From NCBI GenBank assembly GCA_963422645.2, contig CAXXVO010000010.1, positions 1 through 64,000 on the forward strand: DNA of 64,000 nucleotides. The letters run 5' to 3'. The position numbers and the translations under genes were made by a program. Below, piece by piece: positions 36,155-63,785 of the stretch. How positions within the stretch are numbered: the stretch's first letter is position 1; each line of letters opens with the position of its first letter. Below the pieces are notes generated by a model that was given only the letters and a program-made list of their open reading frames with translations, made no database searches and had not been told where the DNA came from. The stretch comes from Alphaproteobacteria bacterium (GTDB taxonomy: Bacteria; Pseudomonadota; Alphaproteobacteria; UBA828).

Positions 36155-36506
36155 GTCGTTGTTGAGTCATTTCCCGAAATTCCCGTCAAGCCCTTTCCAC
36201 CAACTCCGAACGAGAAACGCCTCAATCCACTGGCCCAAAATGACAAATCAGACGACCTGGGCAGTTACAATTATTCTAATGAAGAATAGCGGCAGGCGGT
36301 GAACTGTCAATCGGCTTTCAATACTGACCCCCGATCGGCGTGCAAAATTGACCCCCCTGAGTGGCACGGCGGAGGTTGTCCCGGTAGCCAATAGGGGGGA
36401 CCCGCGCGGCTTCGTGTGGCGCCCTGCGCTACGCGGAGCGAAGCCGCGTGGGGGGTCCCTGTTGGCCCACCGGGGCAACCGGGCCGCAAGGGAGGCCGGC
36501 GGCGGG

Positions 36507-37235
36507 TCAGGAGCGGTTCTTGAAGCGCCAGCTCTCGTTGCCGGTCTCGATGATCTCGCAATGATGGGTGAGGCGATCGAGCAGCGCTGTGGTCATCTTG
36601 GGGTCGCCGAAGACGGATGGCCATTCGCCGAAGGCGAGGTTTGTGGTGATGACGATCGAGGTGCGCTCGTAGAGCCGGCTCATCAGATGGAAGAGCAGCT
36701 GCCCACCGGCCTGGGCGAAGGGCAGGTAGCCGAGCTCGTCGAGGATGACGAAGTCGCGGCGGACGAGCTGGTCTGCAGTGCGGCCCTGGCGTCCGGCGCG
36801 AAGCTCGGCCTCGAGGAGGTTGACCAGGTCGACGACGTTGTAGCACCGGCCGCGCGCGCCCTTGCGGATGCAGGACCGCGCGATGGCGACGGCGAGATGG
36901 GTCTTGCCGGTACCGGTGCCGCCGACCAGCACGATGTTGCGTTTGCCCTCGAGGAAGCCGCCGCCGGCGAGCTCCTGGATCAGGGGCTCGTTGACCGGCG
37001 AGGCGGCGAAGTCGAAGTCGGCCAGCTCCTTGACCGTCGGCAGCTTGGCGGAGGCCATCTGGTACTTGATCGAGCGGGCCCTCTTGTCGGCGATCTCGAC
37101 CTGCAGCAGCGTACCGATGATCTGTTGCACCGGATGGCGGCGCTTGAGCCCGTCGGCAAGGATGTCGTCGTAAGCGGCGCGCATACCTGCGAGCTTCAGC
37201 TGGGTCATCATCTCCAGCACATCATGACGCTCCAT
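36507..37235 (-). CDS. istB: IS21 helper ATPase
   Basis: [23 protein letters not shown]. Confidence 0.95.
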
Positions 37236-38748
37236 GACCGGCCTCCCTCAGGCTGTCGTAGCGCTGACAGTCGGCTACCGGCTTGTGGCGAAGCTGCAGG
37301 CCCTCGGGCGTCGGGATGATTGCCGGCGGTGCCGGCTGGCGCTGCCGGGCGAGGATGTTGAGCACCACGTCGGCGCTGCAGGCACCGCAGTCGAGCGTCT
37401 CGGCACAGGCCGCCTCAACCGCCTCCAGTCCGTCCTCCAGCACCGCCGCGAGCACCTTGACGAACTGCCGGTCGCCGTCGTCGTGGCCCGCGAGCCGGGT
37501 TCGCAGGCGGCCGAGCGCGTTGGGCAACTGCCAGTCCTTGAAGGGCGCGCCATTGCGTAGCGCGCCGGGCTTCCGCGTCAGGATCGGCACGTAATGCCAC
37601 GGATCGTAGACGAACCGGCCGCGCCCGAAGCTGCGGGGGTGCTCGGCAACGGTCTCGCCGTCCTGGCGGATGACGATCCGATCGGCATAGGCCCGCACGT
37701 CCACCGGCCGGCCGACGGCGCGGGCCGCGACGCTGTACTGGTTGTTGTCGAAGCGCACCAGACAGGTCTTCGAGACCGACACCTCGCTGGCATGGAAGCC
37801 GTCGAAGGGGCCGCGATACGCCATCAGGAAGGGCTGCTCCTCCTCGAACACCTGCCACACCGTCTTGCCCGGGATTGTCGGATGCGGATGCTTCTTGGCG
37901 TCCTCGATGCACCGATCCATCAGCCACTCGTTGATCTCGGCGTAGGAGCGGCCCCGCGGGATGGGCACGAACAGGCGGCCGCGAAGGTCACCCACCTGCT
38001 TCTCGACCTGCCCCTTCTCCCAGCCAGCCCCTGGCGTGCACGCCACAGGCTCCACCAGATGGTGCGAGCACAGCTCCTGGAAGCGGCGGTTGTAGTCCCG
38101 CTTCTTGCCCACGAAGATCGTGCTCACCGCCGTCTTCATGTTGTCGTAGATGCCCCGCCGGCAGACCCCGCCGAAGAAGCGGAAGGCACGCTCGTGCGCC
38201 TCGAAGACCATCTCCTGGCTCTCGCGGGGAAAGATCTGGACCAGATACATCCGGCTGTGGCACAGCCGCATGTGCGCCGCCTTCACCCTGGTCGTCGCGC
38301 CCGACAGACGCGCGTACTCGTGGCTCCAGTCGAACTGGTAGGCCTCGCCGGGATCGAAGATCAGCGGCACATAGGCCTGCGCCGGCGACAACAGCCGCCA
38401 CCGGCGCCGCCAGGCCCTGGCATAGCGGCGAACCGCGTCATAGCCGCCCTTGTAGCCCAGCGACACAAGGTCTTCATGAATCCGCAGAAGAGACAGCCGA
38501 TCCTTGCGTGCCTTCTTCTCGTTGGCCTTCAGCTGGCGCTCAAGCTCCTCCACCCACAGCCCAAGCTTCGGCATCGGCTGGATCTTGCGCTCGTAGCTGT
38601 GCGAGGTCGCATCGCCCCGCACCACCTTGCGTATCGTGTTCTTGGAAACCCTCAAATCCCGGGCGAGCTTCTTGATCGGAACGCCCTTCACCAGATGATC
38701 CCGACGGATCTTCGCGATCGTTTCCACAACCAGCATCTCCCCCACCAC
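37222..38748 (-). CDS. istA: IS21 transposase
   Basis: [19 protein letters not shown]. Confidence 0.95.
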
Positions 38749-38855
38749 CCCGTCCGTCCAAACGACGAGGTGTGTTCATGGACACAAATCCAAGGGGGTC
38801 AATTTTGGACGCCGATCACCCCCAATAGGGGGTCACTTTTCCACGCTTAACAACA

Positions 38856-47844: not shown

Positions 47845-48156
47845 ATGGAATACGCCTTGCGCGATGCCAAGGCTCACCTTTCCAAGCTCATCAGGGACGC
47901 TCAGAACGGCAAACGTGTGGTCATCACCAAGCACGGCGAGCCGGTTGTCGAACTCGTGCGCTGCGCGGGGCGGGGCGGAATCGACTTCGACAAGCTGGAA
48001 GCGGACCGCCGGCGCCTTGGGATCGAGGACGCCTCCCCGGAAGAAGCCGAGGCGATGATCGCCGCCTTTCAAGATCCGGCGCTGAGCCGCCGGGTGCTCG
48101 GACTCGAAGACAAAACAGTCATGGTCCCCGCGGTTCTGAGCCACCCCGTGGCATGA
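47845..48156 (+). CDS. Phd/YefM-family antitoxin; last codons replaced by IS110 sequence
   Basis: LRDAKAHLSKLI..AQNGKRVVITKHGEPVVEL; native end reconstructed as ...EDKE* using 56957-56962. Confidence 0.85.
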   Translation: MEYALRDAKAHLSKLIRDAQNGKRVVITKHGEPVVELVRCAGRGGIDFDKLEADRRRLGIEDASPEEAEAMIAAFQDPALSRRVLGLEDKTVMVPAVLSHPVA

Positions 48157-48222
48157 AACAGGAGCGGTTCGGCTGACGTTTTCCTTGCGCTTGCACCCAT
48201 TTGCCGTGTCAGGATGGGTATT

Positions 48223-48405
48223 GGCGGAGGTGGGGACGTGTGAGCGTCGTTATATCGGTGACGTAGTTCCCGATGACAAAACTGCTTCCGGCGGCCGGCT
48301 CCGCACCCCGTATTGTACCCGGCCCGTGGCCGTGGACGCGCGGCAAATTGCACCGCACCCGCTCGTCGGATGCGTGTTCTTCCGACCGCTGTCCCCGCCT
48401 CCACC
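48223..48405 (+). ncRNA. Predicted IS110 bridge RNA (repeated in each unit)
   Basis: Closed by a long stem GGCGGAGGTGGGGAC/GTCCCCGCCTCCACC; contains target- and donor-matching segments (see findings). Confidence 0.65.
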
Positions 48406-48467
48406 GTGGCGATGCCACGGCGTGATCGTACGCCGCCGTGGCGAGAGCGCAAATGAGGAGGAAGGCG

Positions 48468-49718
48468 ATGAAGACGGAAGGCTTGCACGTCGTCCGGCCG
48501 CGCGCGGCGGGTCTGGACGTGCACAAGATGGAGATCACCGCGACGGTTCGCCTCTGTGAGGGCGAGGGTGAGCCGGTGGTGGAGACGCGCTGCTTCGGCA
48601 CGCTGCCGAGCGGTCTGGAGGAGATGGTCGCGTGGCTGACCGGTCACGGCGTCGAGGCTGCGGTGATGGAAGGGACCGGGGTCTACTGGCAGGCGCCCTT
48701 CGCGGCCCTGGAGGCGGCCGGGCTCGAGGCGATCCTGGTGCATGCGCGTCAGGTGAAGCAGTTGAAGGGGCGCAAGACCGACGTGGCGGACAGCGTGTGG
48801 CTGGCCTGCGTGTGCCAGTTCGGGCTCTGCACGCCTTCCCACGTTCCGCCTGAGCCGTTCCGGGAGCTGCGCGCACTGAGCCGCCAGCGCCGCGTCCTGG
48901 TCAGGCAGCGCTCCGCCGTGCGCAACCGCGTGCAGAAGATCATCGACCGCGCCGGTGCGCGCATCGGCGGCATCCTCTCCGACGTCTTCGGCGTCAACGG
49001 CCGGAAGATCCTCGACGGCCTGGCGCAGGGGACGGCGCGCGAGGTCATCCTCGCCTCGCTCACCAGCCACGTTGCGAACAAGCTGGAGGGGCTCGGCGAG
49101 GCGCTCACCCTGAGCCTGGGCGACAACGACCGCTTCATGCTCAACGACCTGCTGGAGGAGCATGACGCGCTTGAGGCGCGCATCGCGTCCTACACCAGGA
49201 AGATCGACGGGCAGATGACACCGTGGGAGGAGCAGCTCCGTCTGCTGACCACCATCCCCGGCATCGACCGCACCGCCGCCTCGACCATCCTCATCGAGAT
49301 CGGCCCCGACATCGGCGTGTTCGCCTCCAAGGAGCACTTCGCCGCCTGGGCCGGGCTCTGCCCCGGCAACAACGAGAGCGGGGGCAAGCGCCGCAACGCA
49401 CGCACCCGCATGGGCTCCAAGACCCTGCGCGCCTGCCTCGTCGAGTGTGCCCACGGCGCGGCCCGAACCAAGGGGTGCCAGTTCGAGGCTCATCACCGCG
49501 CCCTCGCCGCCCGGCGCGGCTACAAGCGCGCCATCGTCGCCGGCGCTCACAAGATGCTGCGCATCATCTATGTGGTGCTCAAGACCGGCAGGCCCTACTA
49601 CGACCGCACGGCCGACTACGACGCTCTGATGGTCAAGCGCAACGCTCCTCGGTGGATCCGCATGCTCCGCCGCTACGGCTACATCGAGCCCGTAGGCGCG
49701 GAACTCAAGGCCGCCTGA
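48468..49718 (+). CDS. IS110 recombinase, copy 1
   Basis: DEDD: GLDVHK, MEGTG, KTDVADS; catalytic Ser in NNESGGK; GAGGAGG RBS. Confidence 0.95.
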   Translation: MKTEGLHVVRPRAAGLDVHKMEITATVRLCEGEGEPVVETRCFGTLPSGLEEMVAWLTGHGVEAAVMEGTGVYWQAPFAALEAAGLEAILVHARQVKQLKGRKTDVADSVWLACVCQFGLCTPSHVPPEPFRELRALSRQRRVLVRQRSAVRNRVQKIIDRAGARIGGILSDVFGVNGRKILDGLAQGTAREVILASLTSHVANKLEGLGEALTLSLGDNDRFMLNDLLEEHDALEARIASYTRKIDGQMTPWEEQLRLLTTIPGIDRTAASTILIEIGPDIGVFASKEHFAAWAGLCPGNNESGGKRRNARTRMGSKTLRACLVECAHGAARTKGCQFEAHHRALAARRGYKRAIVAGAHKMLRIIYVVLKTGRPYYDRTADYDALMVKRNAPRWIRMLRRYGYIEPVGAELKAA

Positions 49719-50235
49719 GCGGCCCGCATCTCGTCAGCCGGCTACGCGGGACCGCTTCGGACCACATCGGGGAAGTCCACCGCTCGTCTCCGCCGCGCCG
49801 ACCCTGGCGGTCTCAGCCAACGCCGTGACCTCGGGGTTGGAGCGTCACCGCGCGTCCCTCGCCAGAATCTGTTTCACGGCAAACAGTCATGGTCCCCGCG
49901 GTTCTGAGCCACCCCGTGGCATGAAACAGGAGCGGTTCGGCTGACGTTTTCCTTGCGCTTGCACCCATTTGCCGTGTCAGGATGGGTATTGGCGGAGGTG
50001 GGGACGTGTGAGCGTCGTTATATCGGTGACGTAGTTCCCGATGACAAAACTGCTTCCGGCGGCCGGCTCCGCACCCCGTATTGTACCCGGCCCGTGGCCG
50101 TGGACGCGCGGCAAATTGCACCGCACCCGCTCGTCGGATGCGTGTTCTTCCGACCGCTGTCCCCGCCTCCACCGTGGCGATGCCACGGCGTGATCGTACG
50201 CCGCCGTGGCGAGAGCGCAAATGAGGAGGAAGGCG

Positions 50236-51486
50236 ATGAAGACGGAAGGCTTGCACGTCGTCCGGCCGCGCGCGGCGGGTCTGGACGTGCACAAGATGGA
50301 GATCACCGCGACGGTTCGCCTCTGTGAGGGCGAGGGTGAGCCGGTGGTGGAGACGCGCTGCTTCGGCACGCTGCCGAGCGGTCTGGAGGAGATGGTCGCG
50401 TGGCTGACCGGTCACGGCGTCGAGGCTGCGGTGATGGAAGGGACCGGGGTCTACTGGCAGGCGCCCTTCGCGGCCCTGGAGGCGGCCGGGCTCGAGGCGA
50501 TCCTGGTGCATGCGCGTCAGGTGAAGCAGTTGAAGGGGCGCAAGACCGACGTGGCGGACAGCGTGTGGCTGGCCTGCGTGTGCCAGTTCGGGCTCTGCAC
50601 GCCTTCCCACGTTCCGCCTGAGCCGTTCCGGGAGCTGCGCGCACTGAGCCGCCAGCGCCGCGTCCTGGTCAGGCAGCGCTCCGCCGTGCGCAACCGCGTG
50701 CAGAAGATCATCGACCGCGCCGGTGCGCGCATCGGCGGCATCCTCTCCGACGTCTTCGGCGTCAACGGCCGGAAGATCCTCGACGGCCTGGCGCAGGGGA
50801 CGGCGCGCGAGGTCATCCTCGCCTCGCTCACCAGCCACGTTGCGAACAAGCTGGAGGGGCTCGGCGAGGCGCTCACCCTGAGCCTGGGCGACAACGACCG
50901 CTTCATGCTCAACGACCTGCTGGAGGAGCATGACGCGCTTGAGGCGCGCATCGCGTCCTACACCAGGAAGATCGACGGGCAGATGACACCGTGGGAGGAG
51001 CAGCTCCGTCTGCTGACCACCATCCCCGGCATCGACCGCACCGCCGCCTCGACCATCCTCATCGAGATCGGCCCCGACATCGGCGTGTTCGCCTCCAAGG
51101 AGCACTTCGCCGCCTGGGCCGGGCTCTGCCCCGGCAACAACGAGAGCGGGGGCAAGCGCCGCAACGCACGCACCCGCATGGGCTCCAAGACCCTGCGCGC
51201 CTGCCTCGTCGAGTGTGCCCACGGCGCGGCCCGAACCAAGGGGTGCCAGTTCGAGGCTCATCACCGCGCCCTCGCCGCCCGGCGCGGCTACAAGCGCGCC
51301 ATCGTCGCCGGCGCTCACAAGATGCTGCGCATCATCTATGTGGTGCTCAAGACCGGCAGGCCCTACTACGACCGCACGGCCGACTACGACGCTCTGATGG
51401 TCAAGCGCAACGCTCCTCGGTGGATCCGCATGCTCCGCCGCTACGGCTACATCGAGCCCGTAGGCGCGGAACTCAAGGCCGCCTGA
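50236..51486 (+). CDS. IS110 recombinase, copy 2
   Basis: Identical translation to copy 1. Confidence 0.93.
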   Translation: MKTEGLHVVRPRAAGLDVHKMEITATVRLCEGEGEPVVETRCFGTLPSGLEEMVAWLTGHGVEAAVMEGTGVYWQAPFAALEAAGLEAILVHARQVKQLKGRKTDVADSVWLACVCQFGLCTPSHVPPEPFRELRALSRQRRVLVRQRSAVRNRVQKIIDRAGARIGGILSDVFGVNGRKILDGLAQGTAREVILASLTSHVANKLEGLGEALTLSLGDNDRFMLNDLLEEHDALEARIASYTRKIDGQMTPWEEQLRLLTTIPGIDRTAASTILIEIGPDIGVFASKEHFAAWAGLCPGNNESGGKRRNARTRMGSKTLRACLVECAHGAARTKGCQFEAHHRALAARRGYKRAIVAGAHKMLRIIYVVLKTGRPYYDRTADYDALMVKRNAPRWIRMLRRYGYIEPVGAELKAA

Positions 51487-52003
51487 GCGGCCCGCATCTC
51501 GTCAGCCGGCTACGCGGGACCGCTTCGGACCACATCGGGGAAGTCCACCGCTCGTCTCCGCCGCGCCGACCCTGGCGGTCTCAGCCAACGCCGTGACCTC
51601 GGGGTTGGAGCGTCACCGCGCGTCCCTCGCCAGAATCTGTTTCACGGCAAACAGTCATGGTCCCCGCGGTTCTGAGCCACCCCGTGGCATGAAACAGGAG
51701 CGGTTCGGCTGACGTTTTCCTTGCGCTTGCACCCATTTGCCGTGTCAGGATGGGTATTGGCGGAGGTGGGGACGTGTGAGCGTCGTTATATCGGTGACGT
51801 AGTTCCCGATGACAAAACTGCTTCCGGCGGCCGGCTCCGCACCCCGTATTGTACCCGGCCCGTGGCCGTGGACGCGCGGCAAATTGCACCGCACCCGCTC
51901 GTCGGATGCGTGTTCTTCCGACCGCTGTCCCCGCCTCCACCGTGGCGATGCCACGGCGTGATCGTACGCCGCCGTGGCGAGAGCGCAAATGAGGAGGAAG
52001 GCG

Positions 52004-53254
52004 ATGAAGACGGAAGGCTTGCACGTCGTCCGGCCGCGCGCGGCGGGTCTGGACGTGCACAAGATGGAGATCACCGCGACGGTTCGCCTCTGTGAGGGCG
52101 AGGGTGAGCCGGTGGTGGAGACGCGCTGCTTCGGCACGCTGCCGAGCGGTCTGGAGGAGATGGTCGCGTGGCTGACCGGTCACGGCGTCGAGGCTGCGGT
52201 GATGGAAGGGACCGGGGTCTACTGGCAGGCGCCCTTCGCGGCCCTGGAGGCGGCCGGGCTCGAGGCGATCCTGGTGCATGCGCGTCAGGTGAAGCAGTTG
52301 AAGGGGCGCAAGACCGACGTGGCGGACAGCGTGTGGCTGGCCTGCGTGTGCCAGTTCGGGCTCTGCACGCCTTCCCACGTTCCGCCTGAGCCGTTCCGGG
52401 AGCTGCGCGCACTGAGCCGCCAGCGCCGCGTCCTGGTCAGGCAGCGCTCCGCCGTGCGCAACCGCGTGCAGAAGATCATCGACCGCGCCGGTGCGCGCAT
52501 CGGCGGCATCCTCTCCGACGTCTTCGGCGTCAACGGCCGGAAGATCCTCGACGGCCTGGCGCAGGGGACGGCGCGCGAGGTCATCCTCGCCTCGCTCACC
52601 AGCCACGTTGCGAACAAGCTGGAGGGGCTCGGCGAGGCGCTCACCCTGAGCCTGGGCGACAACGACCGCTTCATGCTCAACGACCTGCTGGAGGAGCATG
52701 ACGCGCTTGAGGCGCGCATCGCGTCCTACACCAGGAAGATCGACGGGCAGATGACACCGTGGGAGGAGCAGCTCCGTCTGCTGACCACCATCCCCGGCAT
52801 CGACCGCACCGCCGCCTCGACCATCCTCATCGAGATCGGCCCCGACATCGGCGTGTTCGCCTCCAAGGAGCACTTCGCCGCCTGGGCCGGGCTCTGCCCC
52901 GGCAACAACGAGAGCGGGGGCAAGCGCCGCAACGCACGCACCCGCATGGGCTCCAAGACCCTGCGCGCCTGCCTCGTCGAGTGTGCCCACGGCGCGGCCC
53001 GAACCAAGGGGTGCCAGTTCGAGGCTCATCACCGCGCCCTCGCCGCCCGGCGCGGCTACAAGCGCGCCATCGTCGCCGGCGCTCACAAGATGCTGCGCAT
53101 CATCTATGTGGTGCTCAAGACCGGCAGGCCCTACTACGACCGCACGGCCGACTACGACGCTCTGATGGTCAAGCGCAACGCTCCTCGGTGGATCCGCATG
53201 CTCCGCCGCTACGGCTACATCGAGCCCGTAGGCGCGGAACTCAAGGCCGCCTGA
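52004..53254 (+). CDS. IS110 recombinase, copy 3
   Basis: Identical translation to copy 1. Confidence 0.93.
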   Translation: MKTEGLHVVRPRAAGLDVHKMEITATVRLCEGEGEPVVETRCFGTLPSGLEEMVAWLTGHGVEAAVMEGTGVYWQAPFAALEAAGLEAILVHARQVKQLKGRKTDVADSVWLACVCQFGLCTPSHVPPEPFRELRALSRQRRVLVRQRSAVRNRVQKIIDRAGARIGGILSDVFGVNGRKILDGLAQGTAREVILASLTSHVANKLEGLGEALTLSLGDNDRFMLNDLLEEHDALEARIASYTRKIDGQMTPWEEQLRLLTTIPGIDRTAASTILIEIGPDIGVFASKEHFAAWAGLCPGNNESGGKRRNARTRMGSKTLRACLVECAHGAARTKGCQFEAHHRALAARRGYKRAIVAGAHKMLRIIYVVLKTGRPYYDRTADYDALMVKRNAPRWIRMLRRYGYIEPVGAELKAA

Positions 53255-53772
53255 GCGGCCCGCATCTCGTCAGCCGGCTACGCGGGACCGCTTCGGACCA
53301 CATCGGGGAAGTCCACCGCTCGTCTCCGCCGCGCCGACCCTGGCGGTCTCAGCCAACGCCGTGACCTCGGGGTTGGAGCGTCACCGCGCGTCCCTCGCCA
53401 GAATCTGTTTCACGGCAAAACAGTCATGGTCCCCGCGGTTCTGAGCCACCCCGTGGCATGAAACAGGAGCGGTTCGGCTGACGTTTTCCTTGCGCTTGCA
53501 CCCATTTGCCGTGTCAGGATGGGTATTGGCGGAGGTGGGGACGTGTGAGCGTCGTTATATCGGTGACGTAGTTCCCGATGACAAAACTGCTTCCGGCGGC
53601 CGGCTCCGCACCCCGTATTGTACCCGGCCCGTGGCCGTGGACGCGCGGCAAATTGCACCGCACCCGCTCGTCGGATGCGTGTTCTTCCGACCGCTGTCCC
53701 CGCCTCCACCGTGGCGATGCCACGGCGTGATCGTACGCCGCCGTGGCGAGAGCGCAAATGAGGAGGAAGGCG

Positions 53773-55023
53773 ATGAAGACGGAAGGCTTGCACGTCGTCC
53801 GGCCGCGCGCGGCGGGTCTGGACGTGCACAAGATGGAGATCACCGCGACGGTTCGCCTCTGTGAGGGCGAGGGTGAGCCGGTGGTGGAGACGCGCTGCTT
53901 CGGCACGCTGCCGAGCGGTCTGGAGGAGATGGTCGCGTGGCTGACCGGTCACGGCGTCGAGGCTGCGGTGATGGAAGGGACCGGGGTCTACTGGCAGGCG
54001 CCCTTCGCGGCCCTGGAGGCGGCCGGGCTCGAGGCGATCCTGGTGCATGCGCGTCAGGTGAAGCAGTTGAAGGGGCGCAAGACCGACGTGGCGGACAGCG
54101 TGTGGCTGGCCTGCGTGTGCCAGTTCGGGCTCTGCACGCCTTCCCACGTTCCGCCTGAGCCGTTCCGGGAGCTGCGCGCACTGAGCCGCCAGCGCCGCGT
54201 CCTGGTCAGGCAGCGCTCCGCCGTGCGCAACCGCGTGCAGAAGATCATCGACCGCGCCGGTGCGCGCATCGGCGGCATCCTCTCCGACGTCTTCGGCGTC
54301 AACGGCCGGAAGATCCTCGACGGCCTGGCGCAGGGGACGGCGCGCGAGGTCATCCTCGCCTCGCTCACCAGCCACGTTGCGAACAAGCTGGAGGGGCTCG
54401 GCGAGGCGCTCACCCTGAGCCTGGGCGACAACGACCGCTTCATGCTCAACGACCTGCTGGAGGAGCATGACGCGCTTGAGGCGCGCATCGCGTCCTACAC
54501 CAGGAAGATCGACGGGCAGATGACACCGTGGGAGGAGCAGCTCCGTCTGCTGACCACCATCCCCGGCATCGACCGCACCGCCGCCTCGACCATCCTCATC
54601 GAGATCGGCCCCGACATCGGCGTGTTCGCCTCCAAGGAGCACTTCGCCGCCTGGGCCGGGCTCTGCCCCGGCAACAACGAGAGCGGGGGCAAGCGCCGCA
54701 ACGCACGCACCCGCATGGGCTCCAAGACCCTGCGCGCCTGCCTCGTCGAGTGTGCCCACGGCGCGGCCCGAACCAAGGGGTGCCAGTTCGAGGCTCATCA
54801 CCGCGCCCTCGCCGCCCGGCGCGGCTACAAGCGCGCCATCGTCGCCGGCGCTCACAAGATGCTGCGCATCATCTATGTGGTGCTCAAGACCGGCAGGCCC
54901 TACTACGACCGCACGGCCGACTACGACGCTCTGATGGTCAAGCGCAACGCTCCTCGGTGGATCCGCATGCTCCGCCGCTACGGCTACATCGAGCCCGTAG
55001 GCGCGGAACTCAAGGCCGCCTGA
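53773..55023 (+). CDS. IS110 recombinase, copy 4
   Basis: Identical translation to copy 1. Confidence 0.93.
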   Translation: MKTEGLHVVRPRAAGLDVHKMEITATVRLCEGEGEPVVETRCFGTLPSGLEEMVAWLTGHGVEAAVMEGTGVYWQAPFAALEAAGLEAILVHARQVKQLKGRKTDVADSVWLACVCQFGLCTPSHVPPEPFRELRALSRQRRVLVRQRSAVRNRVQKIIDRAGARIGGILSDVFGVNGRKILDGLAQGTAREVILASLTSHVANKLEGLGEALTLSLGDNDRFMLNDLLEEHDALEARIASYTRKIDGQMTPWEEQLRLLTTIPGIDRTAASTILIEIGPDIGVFASKEHFAAWAGLCPGNNESGGKRRNARTRMGSKTLRACLVECAHGAARTKGCQFEAHHRALAARRGYKRAIVAGAHKMLRIIYVVLKTGRPYYDRTADYDALMVKRNAPRWIRMLRRYGYIEPVGAELKAA

Positions 55024-55541
55024 GCGGCCCGCATCTCGTCAGCCGGCTACGCGGGACCGCTTCGGACCACATCGGGGAAGTCCACCGCTCGTCTCCGCCG
55101 CGCCGACCCTGGCGGTCTCAGCCAACGCCGTGACCTCGGGGTTGGAGCGTCACCGCGCGTCCCTCGCCAGAATCTGTTTCACGGCAAAACAGTCATGGTC
55201 CCCGCGGTTCTGAGCCACCCCGTGGCATGAAACAGGAGCGGTTCGGCTGACGTTTTCCTTGCGCTTGCACCCATTTGCCGTGTCAGGATGGGTATTGGCG
55301 GAGGTGGGGACGTGTGAGCGTCGTTATATCGGTGACGTAGTTCCCGATGACAAAACTGCTTCCGGCGGCCGGCTCCGCACCCCGTATTGTACCCGGCCCG
55401 TGGCCGTGGACGCGCGGCAAATTGCACCGCACCCGCTCGTCGGATGCGTGTTCTTCCGACCGCTGTCCCCGCCTCCACCGTGGCGATGCCACGGCGTGAT
55501 CGTACGCCGCCGTGGCGAGAGCGCAAATGAGGAGGAAGGCG

Positions 55542-56792
55542 ATGAAGACGGAAGGCTTGCACGTCGTCCGGCCGCGCGCGGCGGGTCTGGACGTGCACAA
55601 GATGGAGATCACCGCGACGGTTCGCCTCTGTGAGGGCGAGGGTGAGCCGGTGGTGGAGACGCGCTGCTTCGGCACGCTGCCGAGCGGTCTGGAGGAGATG
55701 GTCGCGTGGCTGACCGGTCACGGCGTCGAGGCTGCGGTGATGGAAGGGACCGGGGTCTACTGGCAGGCGCCCTTCGCGGCCCTGGAGGCGGCCGGGCTCG
55801 AGGCGATCCTGGTGCATGCGCGTCAGGTGAAGCAGTTGAAGGGGCGCAAGACCGACGTGGCGGACAGCGTGTGGCTGGCCTGCGTGTGCCAGTTCGGGCT
55901 CTGCACGCCTTCCCACGTTCCGCCTGAGCCGTTCCGGGAGCTGCGCGCACTGAGCCGCCAGCGCCGCGTCCTGGTCAGGCAGCGCTCCGCCGTGCGCAAC
56001 CGCGTGCAGAAGATCATCGACCGCGCCGGTGCGCGCATCGGCGGCATCCTCTCCGACGTCTTCGGCGTCAACGGCCGGAAGATCCTCGACGGCCTGGCGC
56101 AGGGGACGGCGCGCGAGGTCATCCTCGCCTCGCTCACCAGCCACGTTGCGAACAAGCTGGAGGGGCTCGGCGAGGCGCTCACCCTGAGCCTGGGCGACAA
56201 CGACCGCTTCATGCTCAACGACCTGCTGGAGGAGCATGACGCGCTTGAGGCGCGCATCGCGTCCTACACCAGGAAGATCGACGGGCAGATGACACCGTGG
56301 GAGGAGCAGCTCCGTCTGCTGACCACCATCCCCGGCATCGACCGCACCGCCGCCTCGACCATCCTCATCGAGATCGGCCCCGACATCGGCGTGTTCGCCT
56401 CCAAGGAGCACTTCGCCGCCTGGGCCGGGCTCTGCCCCGGCAACAACGAGAGCGGGGGCAAGCGCCGCAACGCACGCACCCGCATGGGCTCCAAGACCCT
56501 GCGCGCCTGCCTCGTCGAGTGTGCCCACGGCGCGGCCCGAACCAAGGGGTGCCAGTTCGAGGCTCATCACCGCGCCCTCGCCGCCCGGCGCGGCTACAAG
56601 CGCGCCATCGTCGCCGGCGCTCACAAGATGCTGCGCATCATCTATGTGGTGCTCAAGACCGGCAGGCCCTACTACGACCGCACGGCCGACTACGACGCTC
56701 TGATGGTCAAGCGCAACGCTCCTCGGTGGATCCGCATGCTCCGCCGCTACGGCTACATCGAGCCCGTAGGCGCGGAACTCAAGGCCGCCTGA
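55542..56792 (+). CDS. IS110 recombinase, copy 5
   Basis: Identical translation to copy 1. Confidence 0.93.
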   Translation: MKTEGLHVVRPRAAGLDVHKMEITATVRLCEGEGEPVVETRCFGTLPSGLEEMVAWLTGHGVEAAVMEGTGVYWQAPFAALEAAGLEAILVHARQVKQLKGRKTDVADSVWLACVCQFGLCTPSHVPPEPFRELRALSRQRRVLVRQRSAVRNRVQKIIDRAGARIGGILSDVFGVNGRKILDGLAQGTAREVILASLTSHVANKLEGLGEALTLSLGDNDRFMLNDLLEEHDALEARIASYTRKIDGQMTPWEEQLRLLTTIPGIDRTAASTILIEIGPDIGVFASKEHFAAWAGLCPGNNESGGKRRNARTRMGSKTLRACLVECAHGAARTKGCQFEAHHRALAARRGYKRAIVAGAHKMLRIIYVVLKTGRPYYDRTADYDALMVKRNAPRWIRMLRRYGYIEPVGAELKAA

Positions 56793-56975
56793 GCGGCCCG
56801 CATCTCGTCAGCCGGCTACGCGGGACCGCTTCGGACCACATCGGGGAAGTCCACCGCTCGTCTCCGCCGCGCCGACCCTGGCGGTCTCAGCCAACGCCGT
56901 GACCTCGGGGTTGGAGCGTCACCGCGCGTCCCTCGCCAGAATCTGTTTCACGGCAAGAATAGCGGCCGAACACCG

Positions 56976-60006: not shown

Positions 60007-60959
60007 ATGGCCAGGACCAACGGCGGCAACCGTCTGGACGACGCGGCTCGGGCCGGATGGCTCTACTACGTCGCGGGCAACACCCAGGACGAGATCGCGC
60101 ACAAGCTGGGCGTGTCGCGGCAGTCTGCGCAGAGGCTGGTGTCGCTGGCGGTCAGCGAGAAGCTGATCAAGTTCCGACTGGATCACCCCATCGCACACTG
60201 CATGGAGCTTTCGGCGCAACTGAGTCGGCGCTTCGGTCTGCAATCCTGCGAGATCGTGCCGTCGGACCCGGGCGCGCCCGAGTCGATCACCGGCGTTGCC
60301 ATTGCCGGCGCTGCGGAGATGGAGAAGCAGCTCGATACGAAGACGCCCAGGGTCATTGCAGTGGGGACGGGTCGCGTCCTGCGCGCCTGCGTCGAGCAAC
60401 TGCCGTCGATGGATTGCCCGCAGCATCACCTTGTTTCGCTGGTCGGCAATACGATGCCCGATGGGTCCGCCACCGCCTACAACGTCGTGGTGCGCATGGC
60501 CGAGCGTGTCGGCGGCCGGCACAACCCGATGCCGCTCCCCGTGCTGGTGCGCAAGCCGGCCGAGCTCCCCATACTGCACAGCCAGGAACCGGTGGCGAAG
60601 ACGCTTGGGCTGTGCGCCGACGCCGGCGCGACCTTCGTCGGGATCGGTCACATCGATGGCTCGGCGCCGCTCACGGTGGACGGGTTCATCACCCATGAGG
60701 AAAGCCGGGCGCTCATCCGCATGGGCGCGGTTGGCGAGATCGTCGGCTGGGTCTTCGATTCCAGGGCAGGCTGATCGAGGGCCTGACCAACGATCGGGTT
60801 TCGAGCGCGCCGCTGGTGCCCGCAACCCCGCGCCCGATGATCGGGCTCGCCGTCGGCGAAGTCAAGGTCGCCGCGATTCTCGGAGCCATGCGCGGCCAGC
60901 TCATCAACGCGCTGGTCACCGACGAAGCGACGGTCGAGGCGATTCTGGCGCACGCCTGA
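60007..60959 (+). pseudogene. SorC/DeoR-type sugar-binding transcriptional regulator, frameshift near 60765
   Basis: AGWLYYVAGNTQDEIA HTH; continues in another frame to ...LINALVTDEATVEAILAHA*; may be a sequencing error. Confidence 0.8.
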
Positions 60960-60965
60960 CCAGCT

Positions 60966-60992
60966 TGGAGCGTTTCCCTTTCACACGGAAAC
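60966..60992. repeat. REP-like hairpin
   Basis: GCGTTTCC-ctttcacac-GGAAACGC stem just after the stop codon. Confidence 0.4.
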
Positions 60993-61071
60993 GCGCACCT
61001 TCGGTTCTACGCAACTGATTCGATTGCGATTGTCTTCCGTATCTATTGCCACAGGGCGCGGAATTCAAGCC

Positions 61072-61105
61072 TGTCAATCGGCTTTCAATATTGACCCCCG
61101 ATTGG
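61072..61105. mobile_element. Orphan IS21-like terminal repeat
   Basis: 32/34 identical to the IS21 end at 36305-36338. Confidence 0.85.
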
Positions 61106-61257
61106 AGATGCCGTAATGGGGCTTGGCGCCGGCGTGCAGCGTCTCGGCCTGTCGCGATGACGGCGAATCGGTTGTCGTTGCCCTTACACGCGTAGCGTGT
61201 TCACGGGGTCTTGCCGCAAGGCGCGCCCCAATTCCTCTGGAGGAAAGGGCAACGACA

Positions 61258-62298
61258 ATGGACGTCTGTATCGGGCTGGATGTATCGCTGGCAAGCACGG
61301 CGGTTTGCGTTCTCGACGAGAAGGGCAAGATCGCGACCGAGGCGCAGGTCGCCAGCACGCCTGAAGCGCTGGTTGGGTTCCTGCACAAGCTGCCGCACGA
61401 GATCACCGCGATCGGTCTCGAGGCCGGTCCCTTGTCCCACTGGTTGCACAAGGGAATGACCGACGCCGGCTTCGAGGCCGTGTTGATGGAGACCCGGCAG
61501 GTAAAGGGTGCGCTGAAGGCCATGCCGATCAAGACCGATCGCCGGGACGCCGAGGGCATCGCACGGCTGTTGCTGATGGGGTGGTTTCGGCCGGTGCACT
61601 GCAAGTCGGTGTCATCGCAAGAGATGCGAGCCCTCCTGACCTCGCGCAAGTCCGTGCTGGACGCGATCATCCGCCTGGAGGTCTCGCTGCGCGGCGTCCT
61701 GCGTAACTTTGGCCTGAAGCTGGGCCTGATCTCGAAGGGCCGCTATGAGGCCCGAGTGCGGGAGTTGGTCGCCGGCAACGCGATGCTGGAAGCGGCAGCC
61801 GAACCGATCCTGGGCGCGCGGGCGGCCCTGCGCCGCGAGTTCGCCGAGCTGGAGAAGCTGGTCCGCACTCTGGCAAGGCAAGACAGGGCATGCCGCCTGT
61901 TGATGACCATGCCGGGCGTGGGGCATGTCATAGCCCTGACCTTCAAGTCCGCGATCGACGACCCGGAGCGGTTCCGAAGATCGAAGGATGTCGGCCCCTG
62001 GGTAGGGCTGACGCCGGCGCGGGAGCAGTCCGGGGAGAGGGATATTGTCGGCCGGATCACCAAGGCCGGCGATGCCGGTCTGCGCGCGGCTCTTTACCAA
62101 GCCGCAACGGTGATGCTGAACCGCACAGGGCCGAACTGGCTGAAGGCTTGGGCGCTACGTTTGGCGAAGCACAGGGGCAAGAAGCGCGCGACCGTTGCCT
62201 TGGCCCGGCGCATCGGTGTTGTGCTTCACCGAATGTGGCGGGATGGAACCGAGTTCCGCTTTACGCGCGAGGAAGCGATGGCGCTTCGGACGGCATAG
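61258..62298 (+). CDS. IS110-family recombinase
   Basis: GLDVS, LEAG, KTDRRDA, EQSGE. Confidence 0.95.
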   Translation: MDVCIGLDVSLASTAVCVLDEKGKIATEAQVASTPEALVGFLHKLPHEITAIGLEAGPLSHWLHKGMTDAGFEAVLMETRQVKGALKAMPIKTDRRDAEGIARLLLMGWFRPVHCKSVSSQEMRALLTSRKSVLDAIIRLEVSLRGVLRNFGLKLGLISKGRYEARVRELVAGNAMLEAAAEPILGARAALRREFAELEKLVRTLARQDRACRLLMTMPGVGHVIALTFKSAIDDPERFRRSKDVGPWVGLTPAREQSGERDIVGRITKAGDAGLRAALYQAATVMLNRTGPNWLKAWALRLAKHRGKKRATVALARRIGVVLHRMWRDGTEFRFTREEAMALRTA

Positions 62299-62369
62299 GC
62301 GCGGCTGCATCCCATCGGCAGTCAGCGAGGAGAGGAGGAAAGAGCCGCGCCTGAAGGTGGGCGAGCCAC

Positions 62370-62550
62370 CAACGTCCCCTCGCCGGGACGCGGTCCCCGA
62401 TGATGCACGTGGGCCCACTTGTTTGCCGAACCGGCCTGTCGTGTTCGAGCACGCTGTGGAGATAGGCACTCGGGAACCGATTTGGACTGGGCATGATGTT
62501 GGCAGCCGATGCGCTGACCACGGACAGAAGCGAGAACCCGGCGAAGGACA
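62370..62550 (+). ncRNA. Predicted seek/bridge RNA of the IS1111-type element
   Basis: Four segments matching target and donor halves (see findings); boundaries approximate. Confidence 0.65.
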
Positions 62551-62759
62551 CAAGACGTTGAGCAAGCGCGAGATCGATACGGTCGGCCCCATTGCACCTG
62601 ACACCGGCAACCTCCTCCGCGCCTCACCCGGCGCCTCATAGCCAGGCCGAAGGAGCCCCTACACCACGCCAGGAAAACAACTGATTGGCGCGACAATGAT
62701 CTATTGAAAATCGAGCTTGACGGGAAACGCCCCATTACAGAAGTGGGCCCCTGGGGTCG

Positions 62760-62895
62760 GGCAACCGGGGCCGGCGCCGTCGAGAGAGTGCATTGCGGCA
62801 TCGGCACGGGTATCCAGCCAGCGCTCGACGCCTGCTGCGACGGCTTCGCTGTCACCGGTGTAGGTGCCGTTCAGCCAGCGGGTGATGCTGGAGCC
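62760..62895 (-). pseudogene. Fragment resembling the N-terminal HTH of MuB-type transposition ATPases
   Basis: SSITRWLNGTYTGDSEAVAAGVERWLD. Confidence 0.4.
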
Positions 62896-62993
62896 CTTAT
62901 GGGCTGTGAGCGTTCTGCCAAGTCCGGTGAAGGGTCGAAAACGCATGGCCTGAGGCGCTGGCCATCGAGTGCGGCCTCCCGATCCCGGGTACT

Positions 62994-63785
62994 TCAGCCG
63001 AAAACCGCACGCCCGCCTGTGAGGACCACTACCTCTCCGACCTTCGCCTGGAAGAACAGCCCGGCGCCATTGCCATCTGCGGTCACGTCGATCGCATCCC
63101 CTGGCATCACCGGTGCTGCGAGGCGCGCTTCGAGGCGTCTGAGTTCGCTCGGGTGAGCCCCCGCCGGCTCGGCGAGCATTCGCGCCGCGATCCCGAGTGT
63201 GCAGAGGCCGTGGAGGATCGGTCGATCGAAGCCGTTGGCGCGCGCGACCTCGATATCGATGTGGATCGGATGCAGGTCACCGGTCAGCCGGTAAAGCGCC
63301 GCCCGGCTACGATCGGTCGCGTGGCGGCCTTGCCAGGACGGCTGCCATTCCTGAGGCGTAGCCGACGGCCCCCGCTCGCCTCCCCAGCCTCCGCGCCCCG
63401 GCAGGAAGATGCCGTAGCGCGCCGTGAAGAGCTCGCACTCCACGACGATGGTGACAATCGCCGCCTTGCCCTTGTCCCATACCTCGGCGACCCGTCCCCG
63501 AGCCTCGAACGAGCCGTTGCGGGGCATCGGCGCGTGCACGTCCAGGCTCTGGGCAGCGTGGAGTGACCTGTTCCGGTCGTAGGCACCGAGGCCGCCTGCC
63601 GATTCGACCGCCCAAAGGCCGAGGGCGCAGGCGTAGGTCGGCAACACCCTGAGGTCCCGCTCGTAGACGAGCTCCGTCTCGTCGCTCGAGGCCCCGACGG
63701 CGAGCGCATAGAGTATCGCGTCGCGCGTGTCGTAGCCGATGGTTCGGGTGCCGAGATCGTGCCCGGCCAGATCCTTGAGCTCCAT
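62994..63785 (-). CDS. MaoC-like double hot-dog dehydratase
   Basis: DAILYALAVG, YRLTGDLHPIHID, ILHGLCT. Confidence 0.9.
   Translation of the reverse strand: MELKDLAGHDLGTRTIGYDTRDAILYALAVGASSDETELVYERDLRVLPTYACALGLWAVESAGGLGAYDRNRSLHAAQSLDVHAPMPRNGSFEARGRVAEVWDKGKAAIVTIVVECELFTARYGIFLPGRGGWGGERGPSATPQEWQPSWQGRHATDRSRAALYRLTGDLHPIHIDIEVARANGFDRPILHGLCTLGIAARMLAEPAGAHPSELRRLEARLAAPVMPGDAIDVTADGNGAGLFFQAKVGEVVVLTGGRAVFG

Follow-up and report, generated by a model that had tools for sequence, protein, structure and literature searches.

The closest described relatives of the element studied here are the seekRNA-guided insertion sequences (IS) of the IS1111 group, such as ISEc11, ISKpn4, ISPst6 and ISPa11 (Siddiquee et al. 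2024, PMC11187229), for which the main account gives transposases of 330-350 aa with a C-terminal GL-P----S(t)G motif and subterminal repeats of ~11-13 bp bordered by terminal extensions (7 bp at the left end, 3 bp at the right), and mentions junction promoters for the family. A second guide design is the bridge RNA of IS621, in which a target loop and a donor loop each pair both strands around a 2-nt core (Durrant et al. 2024, PMC11208160). Transposable elements are themselves among the targets of such elements, with IS4321 and IS5075 targeting Tn21-family repeats and ISEc21 targeting the DDE codons of IS3-family elements (bioRxiv version). Here we describe an IS1111-type element near the end of a 64,000-nt stretch of alphaproteobacterial DNA (the window; contig CAXXVO010000010.1 of assembly GCA_963422645.2, lineage UBA828), whose two-loop guide RNA very probably directs insertion into the tips of IS3-family terminal inverted repeats.

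The window element shares with the IS1111 seekRNA elements a 346-aa DEDD transposase, 7-nt and 3-nt extensions, a long downstream non-coding arm, guide matches that overlap and have the top-strand complement in the 5' position, insertion in a single orientation without target duplication, and natural re-targeting between close relatives, as these traits are set out in the main account (PMC11187229). It is set apart from them by its target, the IS3-family repeat tip, and its nearest relatives in a plasmid collection are only distant ones (70-73% DNA identity, annotated 'IS110 family transposase'). The target loop and donor loop, each pairing both strands around a 2-nt core, are shared with IS621, but the RNA of IS621 lies in the left end and that of the window element in the right end, with the guide order in the loop reversed (PMC11208160). 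Further differences from IS621 are the long subterminal repeats of the window element and its core, which is AG. The core of IS621 is CT.

The published descriptions of IS4321 and IS5075 present IS1111-type elements whose specific site falls within a terminal inverted repeat belonging to a different transposable element, as is the case here, although at this locus the host is an IS3-family insertion sequence rather than a Tn3/Tn21-family transposon, and the target differs in sequence. With ISEc21 the window element has in common that an RNA-guided DEDD element parasitises IS3-family insertion sequences; in ISEc21, however, the guide precedes the transposase gene and the site hit lies in the IS3 transposase gene, whereas in the window element the guide follows the transposase gene and the site hit is the repeat tip. 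In searching the literature for IS1111-type elements that target an IS3 repeat, we found only ISEc21 and IS4321/IS5075, and the published supplementary target lists (PMC11187229, >300 IS; PMC11208160) may already include such a target. RNA guidance, the guide order, natural re-targeting, the two-loop design and transposon-targeting IS110/IS1111 elements are all already published, and what we present is therefore a further element of this known kind, aimed at a new target; it leaves knowledge of the mechanism unchanged and adds the IS3-family repeat tip to the transposon ends attacked by IS110/IS1111 elements.

Anatomy of the element and its insertion site

The intact insertion sequence measures 1,636 bp, with its boundaries set by comparison of filled and empty sites, and occurs in the source genome in six copies of 99.8-100% identity. 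The original prediction had called an IS1111-type element, and a transposase open reading frame of IS110/IS1111 type is indeed present as the element's single gene: its product matches DEDD_Tnp_IS110 (PF01548, 1.5e-16) and Transposase_20 (PF02371, 7.4e-24), and GLTPAREQSG in the translation of 61123-62298 is the GL-P----S(t)G motif of the IS1111 type. The element belongs to the IS1111 group of the IS110 family. Its non-coding arms comprise 443 nt downstream of the transposase gene (62299-62741) versus 152 nt upstream (61106-61257), and an Rfam search of 60900-63000 returned no relevant family. The subterminal inverted repeats GTAATGGGGC and GCCCCATTAC match perfectly over 10 bp (11/12 if extended), and the extensions AGATGCC on the left and AGA on the right account exactly for the 1,636-bp insert deduced from the empty sites.

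The true empty site reads TGG/AGTGGGCCCC (the slash marks a junction), and the insert sits between TGG and AGTGGGCCCC. The filled site minus the empty site is exactly the element, with no target duplication. It had been proposed that the empty site is GATTGG-AGA-AGTGGGCCC, but uninterrupted sites in the source genome read ...GAT/TGGAGTGGGCCCCTGGGG and, because they do so without an extra AGA, these three letters belong to the element; a genome-wide search allowing up to 2 mismatches found no sequence like the proposed reconstruction (TGGAGAAGTGGGCCC) in an IS-end context. The left junction TGG/AGATGCC is present in 6/6 copies and the right junction ...ACAGA/AGTGGGCCC in 4/6, with insertion position and orientation relative to the IS3 repeat constant at all six left and all four intact right junctions. 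An IS3-family repeat forms the right flank at each of the latter.

The host element is represented by an intact copy of 1,268 bp at C5:89523-90790, with empty TGGAGTGGGCCCC tips at both ends. It begins with TG and ends with CA, is flanked by a 3-bp duplication (GAT) within the right end of an IS21-type element, and encodes one protein with HTH_Tnp_1 (8.2e-9) and a second with HTH_21, rve (3.7e-26) and rve_3; on the basis of these termini, the HTH and rve proteins and the 3-bp duplication we therefore assign it to the IS3 family. Its inverted repeat at both ends is TGGAGTGGGCCCCTGGGGyCGGACAG (26 nt; TGGAG...CTCCA), and the 12 nt recognised by the guide (TGG-AG-TGGGCCC) are the first 12 nt of this repeat. 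The IS3 flanks of the IS1111-type copies represent different ends and different IS3 copies, ~93% identical to each other, and both ends of the IS3 copy at C8:525510-526744 carry an insertion, the two in mirror orientation. Across 61 related genomes, the filled junction was found in three (G000, G010 and G011, with G000 counted among the 61) and the empty IS3 tip (up to 1 mismatch) in 18.

Guide RNA and its covariation with flanks and ends

The consensus fold predicted by RNAalifold from nine relatives comprises an outer stem, a first stem-loop (62391-62479) and a second stem-loop extending to ~62536. The four motifs that the original prediction had picked out in the 3' arm are all found where it placed them, namely GGGCCCACTT (62411-62420), TGGAGA (62457-62462), GGCAT (62490-62494) and ACAGA (62524-62528), and the corresponding segments match, respectively, the right target, the left target plus core, the left end, and the right end plus core. 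Within the first loop, the GGGCCCACT and TGGAG matches overlap at the core AG, with the top-strand complement lying 5' of the bottom-strand guide. This right-before-left order, which had been remarked upon as the reverse of an arrayed IS110 in the same window, is the order given for IS1111 in the main account of PMC11187229. Within the 64-kb window, AGTGGGCCC is found at just two places, in the right flank and as the reverse complement in the guide, against 0.84 occurrences expected by chance in the window. In the second internal loop, one side matches the left end of the element and the other its right end. The AT that follows the TGGAG guide corresponds to the next two letters of the left junction, that is, the first two element letters past the core AG, and might act like the post-exchange handshake guide outlined in PMC13626964.

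A covariance model of the first stem-loop found 79 places in 90 sources. In the resulting alignment, which was fitted to the model and thereby favours the pairing figures, 89.6% of cells are paired and 18/29 pairs show compensatory change; 0/500 shuffles reach the observed values, and slid controls are 25-39% paired. Covariation between guides and flanks was assessed on 80 loci from genome contigs, in 47 of which both ends were definable; together with the window element and seven relatives these gave 55 elements, 52 with a model match inside the element and 49 distinct element/site pairs. Unanchored searches (longest common substring; best Hamming pair in the arm) proved too noisy, with the own flank the unique best in 4/50, and were therefore replaced by a test in which guide columns were fixed by the covariance-model alignment.

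With fixed columns, guides matched their own right flank at an average of 4.73 of 8 positions (other flanks, 2.15) and their own left flank at 3.76 of 5 (other flanks, 1.26). Right-flank matches of at least 6/8 were seen in 27 of the 49 own pairs versus 15 of 2,298 other pairs, and 0/10,000 permutations reached the observed guide-flank total. The right guide of the window element itself matches at 7/8 positions, and the three matching positions of its left guide are the TGG of the IS3 tip. The donor side behaves similarly, with the 5-letter donor guide equal to the element's own right end in 49/52 relatives across four variants (ACGGA 33, ACCGA 10, ACAGA 4, ATGGA 2). Left-end variants are partly tracked: the change from ATGCC to ATACC is paired with a guide change from GCAT to GTAT in 3/3 cases, and ATGCT with AGCAT in 1/3.

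The same pattern is visible within the source genome, where a second relative, 85% identical to the window element and present at three places, departs from it exactly at the guide segments, with TTTGAACCCT in place of GGGCCCACTT and ATCAGA in place of TGGAGA; its flanks (..GATC/../AGGTTCAAA) change in step with its guides. RNA folding and covariation had been named as a check of the original prediction, and both the compensatory changes in the stem and the tracking of flanks by guides in the 49 pairs bear out its RNA component. The element is thus a clean natural example of the seekRNA/bridge-RNA code, with dozens of relatives in which all four guides vary with their DNA partners, and such covarying guides are useful for design rules of IS1111-type recombinases.

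Table 1 Features of the nested locus, in window coordinates.
Feature	Coordinates	Strand	Remarks
IS21-family right-end repeat fragment, 31 nt (TGTCAATCGG...CCCCCGAT)	61072..61102	+	outermost layer of the nest; not the recognised target
TGG, first 3 nt of the IS3-family inverted repeat, severed by the insertion (left target)	61103..61105	+	uninterrupted tips read TGGAGTGGGCCCC
Complete IS1111-type insertion sequence	61106..62741	+	six copies; filled and empty sites
Left end: 7-nt extension AGATGCC, then subterminal inverted repeat GTAATGGGGC (61113-61122)	61106..61122	+	
DEDD transposase gene, 346 aa + stop	61258..62298	+	Pfam matches
Predicted long guide RNA (seekRNA/bridge RNA), closing stem 62377-62387 / 62537-62547	62377..62547	+	RNAalifold, 9 relatives; true ends may differ
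Target-binding stem-loop with large internal loop (predicted)	62391..62479	+	covariance model
Top-strand guide GGGCCCACT, complement of AG+TGGGCCC, 5' side of loop	62411..62419	+	
Bottom-strand guide TGGAG (TGG + core AG), then AT; 3' side of loop	62457..62463	+	
Donor guide GGCAT, complement of left-end ATGCC	62490..62494	+	
Donor guide ACAGAAG, equal to right end ACAGA + core AG	62524..62530	+	
TTGACG, -35-like hexamer, 19 nt from right end	62717..62722	+	TTGAC kept in relatives
Right end: subterminal inverted repeat GCCCCATTAC (62729-62738), then 3-nt extension AGA	62729..62741	+	
AGTGGGCCCCTGGGGTCGG, 19-nt IS3 inverted-repeat remnant (core AG + right target)	62742..62760	+	rest of the IS3 copy deleted here

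Proposed mechanism and alternative explanations

In the mechanism we propose, a DEDD recombinase would act together with a ~170-nt two-loop guide RNA encoded downstream of its gene. In the first loop, GGGCCCACT would pair with the top strand of AG-TGGGCCC and TGGAG, 40 nt beyond GGGCCCACT, with the bottom strand of TGG-AG, such that both target guides, overlapping at the core AG, would together read the 12-nt TGGAGTGGGCCC; in the second loop, GGCAT and ACAGAAG would recognise the two ends of the element where they abut. Integration of the circular form by the recombinase-RNA complex would then take place between TGG and AG, in a single orientation and with no duplication of the target. TGGAGTGGGCCC is the outermost tip of both terminal repeats of the 1.27-kb IS3-family element; each insertion parts the IS3 terminal TG from the rest of the repeat and should disable that end. 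We infer that the RNA is made and bound, that the circle is formed and that the IS3 end is inactivated. The TTGACG near the right end, whose TTGAC is conserved in 10/10 close relatives aligned, is a candidate for half of a promoter that only circularisation would complete, in keeping with the junction promoters mentioned for the IS1111 family (PMC11187229).

Several observations weigh against guidance of this kind. The window RNA alone folds no better than shuffles (z=-0.87 for 188 nt, -1.11 for the 93-nt loop), and in its single-sequence minimum-energy fold the two target guides pair with each other over 4 nt each. The target loop, in which the original prediction expected its 10-nt match to lie, is open in the family consensus, but may be partly closed in the free window RNA. 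The window left guide matches at only 3/5 variable positions, and 22/49 relatives score below 6/8 on their own right flank, some of these being one-column register shifts. The right junction is absent in 2/6 copies, which lost the right tip by deletion. Three perfect IS3 tips are unoccupied in the source genome, as is a chromosomal TGGAGTGGGCCC outside any IS (C6:185901). No RNA, circle or transposition was observed; RNA sequencing runs contained only short pieces of relatives and no joints.

That such guide-like matches are by-products of sequence shared by ends and flanks, the site being recognised by protein alone, draws some support from this lack of an observed RNA and from the partly palindromic target, in which short matches could arise by chance. 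Guide columns nevertheless track the flanks in 49 element/site pairs while the surrounding stems are conserved, and RNA was essential in the ISEc11, ISKpn4, ISPa11 and ISPst6 experiments as reported in the main account of PMC11187229; we consider the probability of protein-only recognition negligible. It could also be argued that the six copies descend from one ancient insertion, multiplied through duplication or repeat-mediated recombination or carried along by the IS3 or IS21 element, given that the genome is full of repeats able to recombine, that two copies (C8:417734 and C3:192710-194354) have a rearranged right end and that the IS21 contexts of the copies are similar to one another. The copies are 99.8-100% identical, however, and yet the IS3 copies are only ~93% identical; one copy adjoins IS3 sequence of the left-end type and two others adjoin that of the right-end type; the IS3 copy at C8:525510-526744 carries insertions at both of its ends, mirrored as targeting would predict; the outer IS21 sequences differ between copies; and the family-wide guide-flank covariation shows that sites in this family are selected by the guide. 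A single ancient insertion is accordingly a very unlikely source of the six copies.

The original prediction had instead proposed IS21-family terminal repeats as the target of the guide RNA, making the element a direct parasite of IS21 ends. An IS21-like end sequence does lie immediately to the left of the insertion in all six copies, and in the window it is real over 31 nt (61072-61102, 94% identical to the right end of a ~74-copy IS21-type element), but in every copy it stops 3 nt before the insertion point, the letters preceding TGG vary (GAT, TAT, ATA), and both TGG (61103-61105) and 62742-62760 are parts of an IS3-family repeat, as is the right flank at 4/4 intact junctions. The reported 12/15 likeness to the IS21 left-end repeat is arithmetically right, with TGGAAAAGTGACCCC at 38829-38843 on the minus strand of the element at 36306-38855, but it was measured against a site that does not exist, and the real 12-nt target aligns to the IS21 repeat only with a 2-nt gap. 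Of the ends of the IS21 element in the source genome, 69/72 left and 72/74 right ends are uninterrupted, and none of the 72 left or 74 right ends carries an IS1111-type element at the proposed site. Four of the five interrupted ends bear the IS3 tip TGG, and the fifth adjoins a rearranged IS1111-type copy whose IS3 element was deleted. Direct guidance to IS21 ends is thus extremely unlikely; what holds of the parasite proposed is that the element attacks the terminal repeat of another insertion sequence, but this repeat is that of the IS3 family, to which the guide matches are confined.

For guidance to the IS3 repeat tip, IS21-like sequence would adjoin the insertion because the IS3-family element preferentially occupies IS21 terminal repeats; from the positions at which it recurs, this element looks to have a site preference for IS21 ends. 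The locus is a three-layer nest, with an IS1111-type element in an IS3-family repeat in an IS21-family end, and carries a lesson for annotation, in that the sequence adjoining an insertion can mislead as to the true target.

Nesting, sister elements and other features of the window

The complete IS21-family element of the window (36306-38855, 2.55 kb) encodes IstA (rve and Mu-transpos_C_2) and IstB (IstB_IS21, 3.2e-75). The load of IS21 elements is unusually heavy, with 72 exact left-end and 74 right-end sites in the 5.9-Mb genome. The IS3 element recurs directly after GACCCC(C)nAT of the IS21-type end repeats, with 3-bp duplications, at C5:89523, C7:230783, C8:523871, C8:417728, C18:202914, C3:194344 and C8:528402 and at 61100-61105 of the window, and the same context is seen at loci L147, L149, L151 and L153; IS3 insertions occur in both orientations of a small palindrome in the IS21 left end. 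Elsewhere, an IS3 element in an IS21 end was the context in 5/12 loci examined. In addition, 27-nt palindromes consisting of two abutted IS3 tips (TGGAGTGGGCCCC.GGGGCCCnCTCCA) were observed at G002:C1:408501-408527 (locus L149), G004:C1:417459-417485 and G005:C4:113310-113336, the one in G002 lying within an IS21 left end. These could be excision scars or minimal derivatives.

A sister element in a related genome (L079 / L033, G004 C1:4871752-4873196) is 85% identical to the window element and inserted after ATGGCAA at the orfA start of a homologue of the same IS3 element. Its guides match this orfA-start site; the repeat tip of the IS3 homologue, 108 nt upstream, carries no insertion, and the homologue itself again lies in an IS21-like end. 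The two insertion sites hint at repeated re-targeting onto one host element. One tentative and rather doubtful extension would be that the clade consists of specialised hyperparasites of one IS3-family element, re-programmed to its repeat tip and its orfA start and holding that IS3 down by severing its termini; the source genome contains one intact IS3 copy versus ~72 IS21-type copies. Were this to be true, the hyperparasite clade would constitute a natural form of RNA-guided transposon-against-transposon control, three layers deep.

Rearrangements were noted in several copies and relatives. The copies at C8:417734-419356 and C3:192710-194354 retain the left junction, but their right ends are 8-12 nt short; in the latter the whole IS3 element is also gone, leaving ...GAAACGCCCC/AATAGGGGG, and the loss of its right end looks like a deletion across 2-3-nt microhomology. 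The 85% relative is present at C8:627089-630117 as a head-to-tail pair, with the second copy lacking the first ~57 nt, and at L065 (G001:C427) and L063 (G047:C1:3417931-3418046) related elements have their right-end segment duplicated in tandem (...CCCCATTACGGAAG repeated).

Elsewhere in the window, the ~100 nt to the left of the IS21 fragment (60968-61071) recur at five other places in the genome with 84-91% identity. Tandem Repeats Finder, with a longest period of 500, reported nothing at 47-59.5 kb, and a general repeat search found there an array of five head-to-tail, essentially identical units of 1,768 or 1,769 nt (~48111-56950), which is probably the arrayed IS110 of the original prediction.

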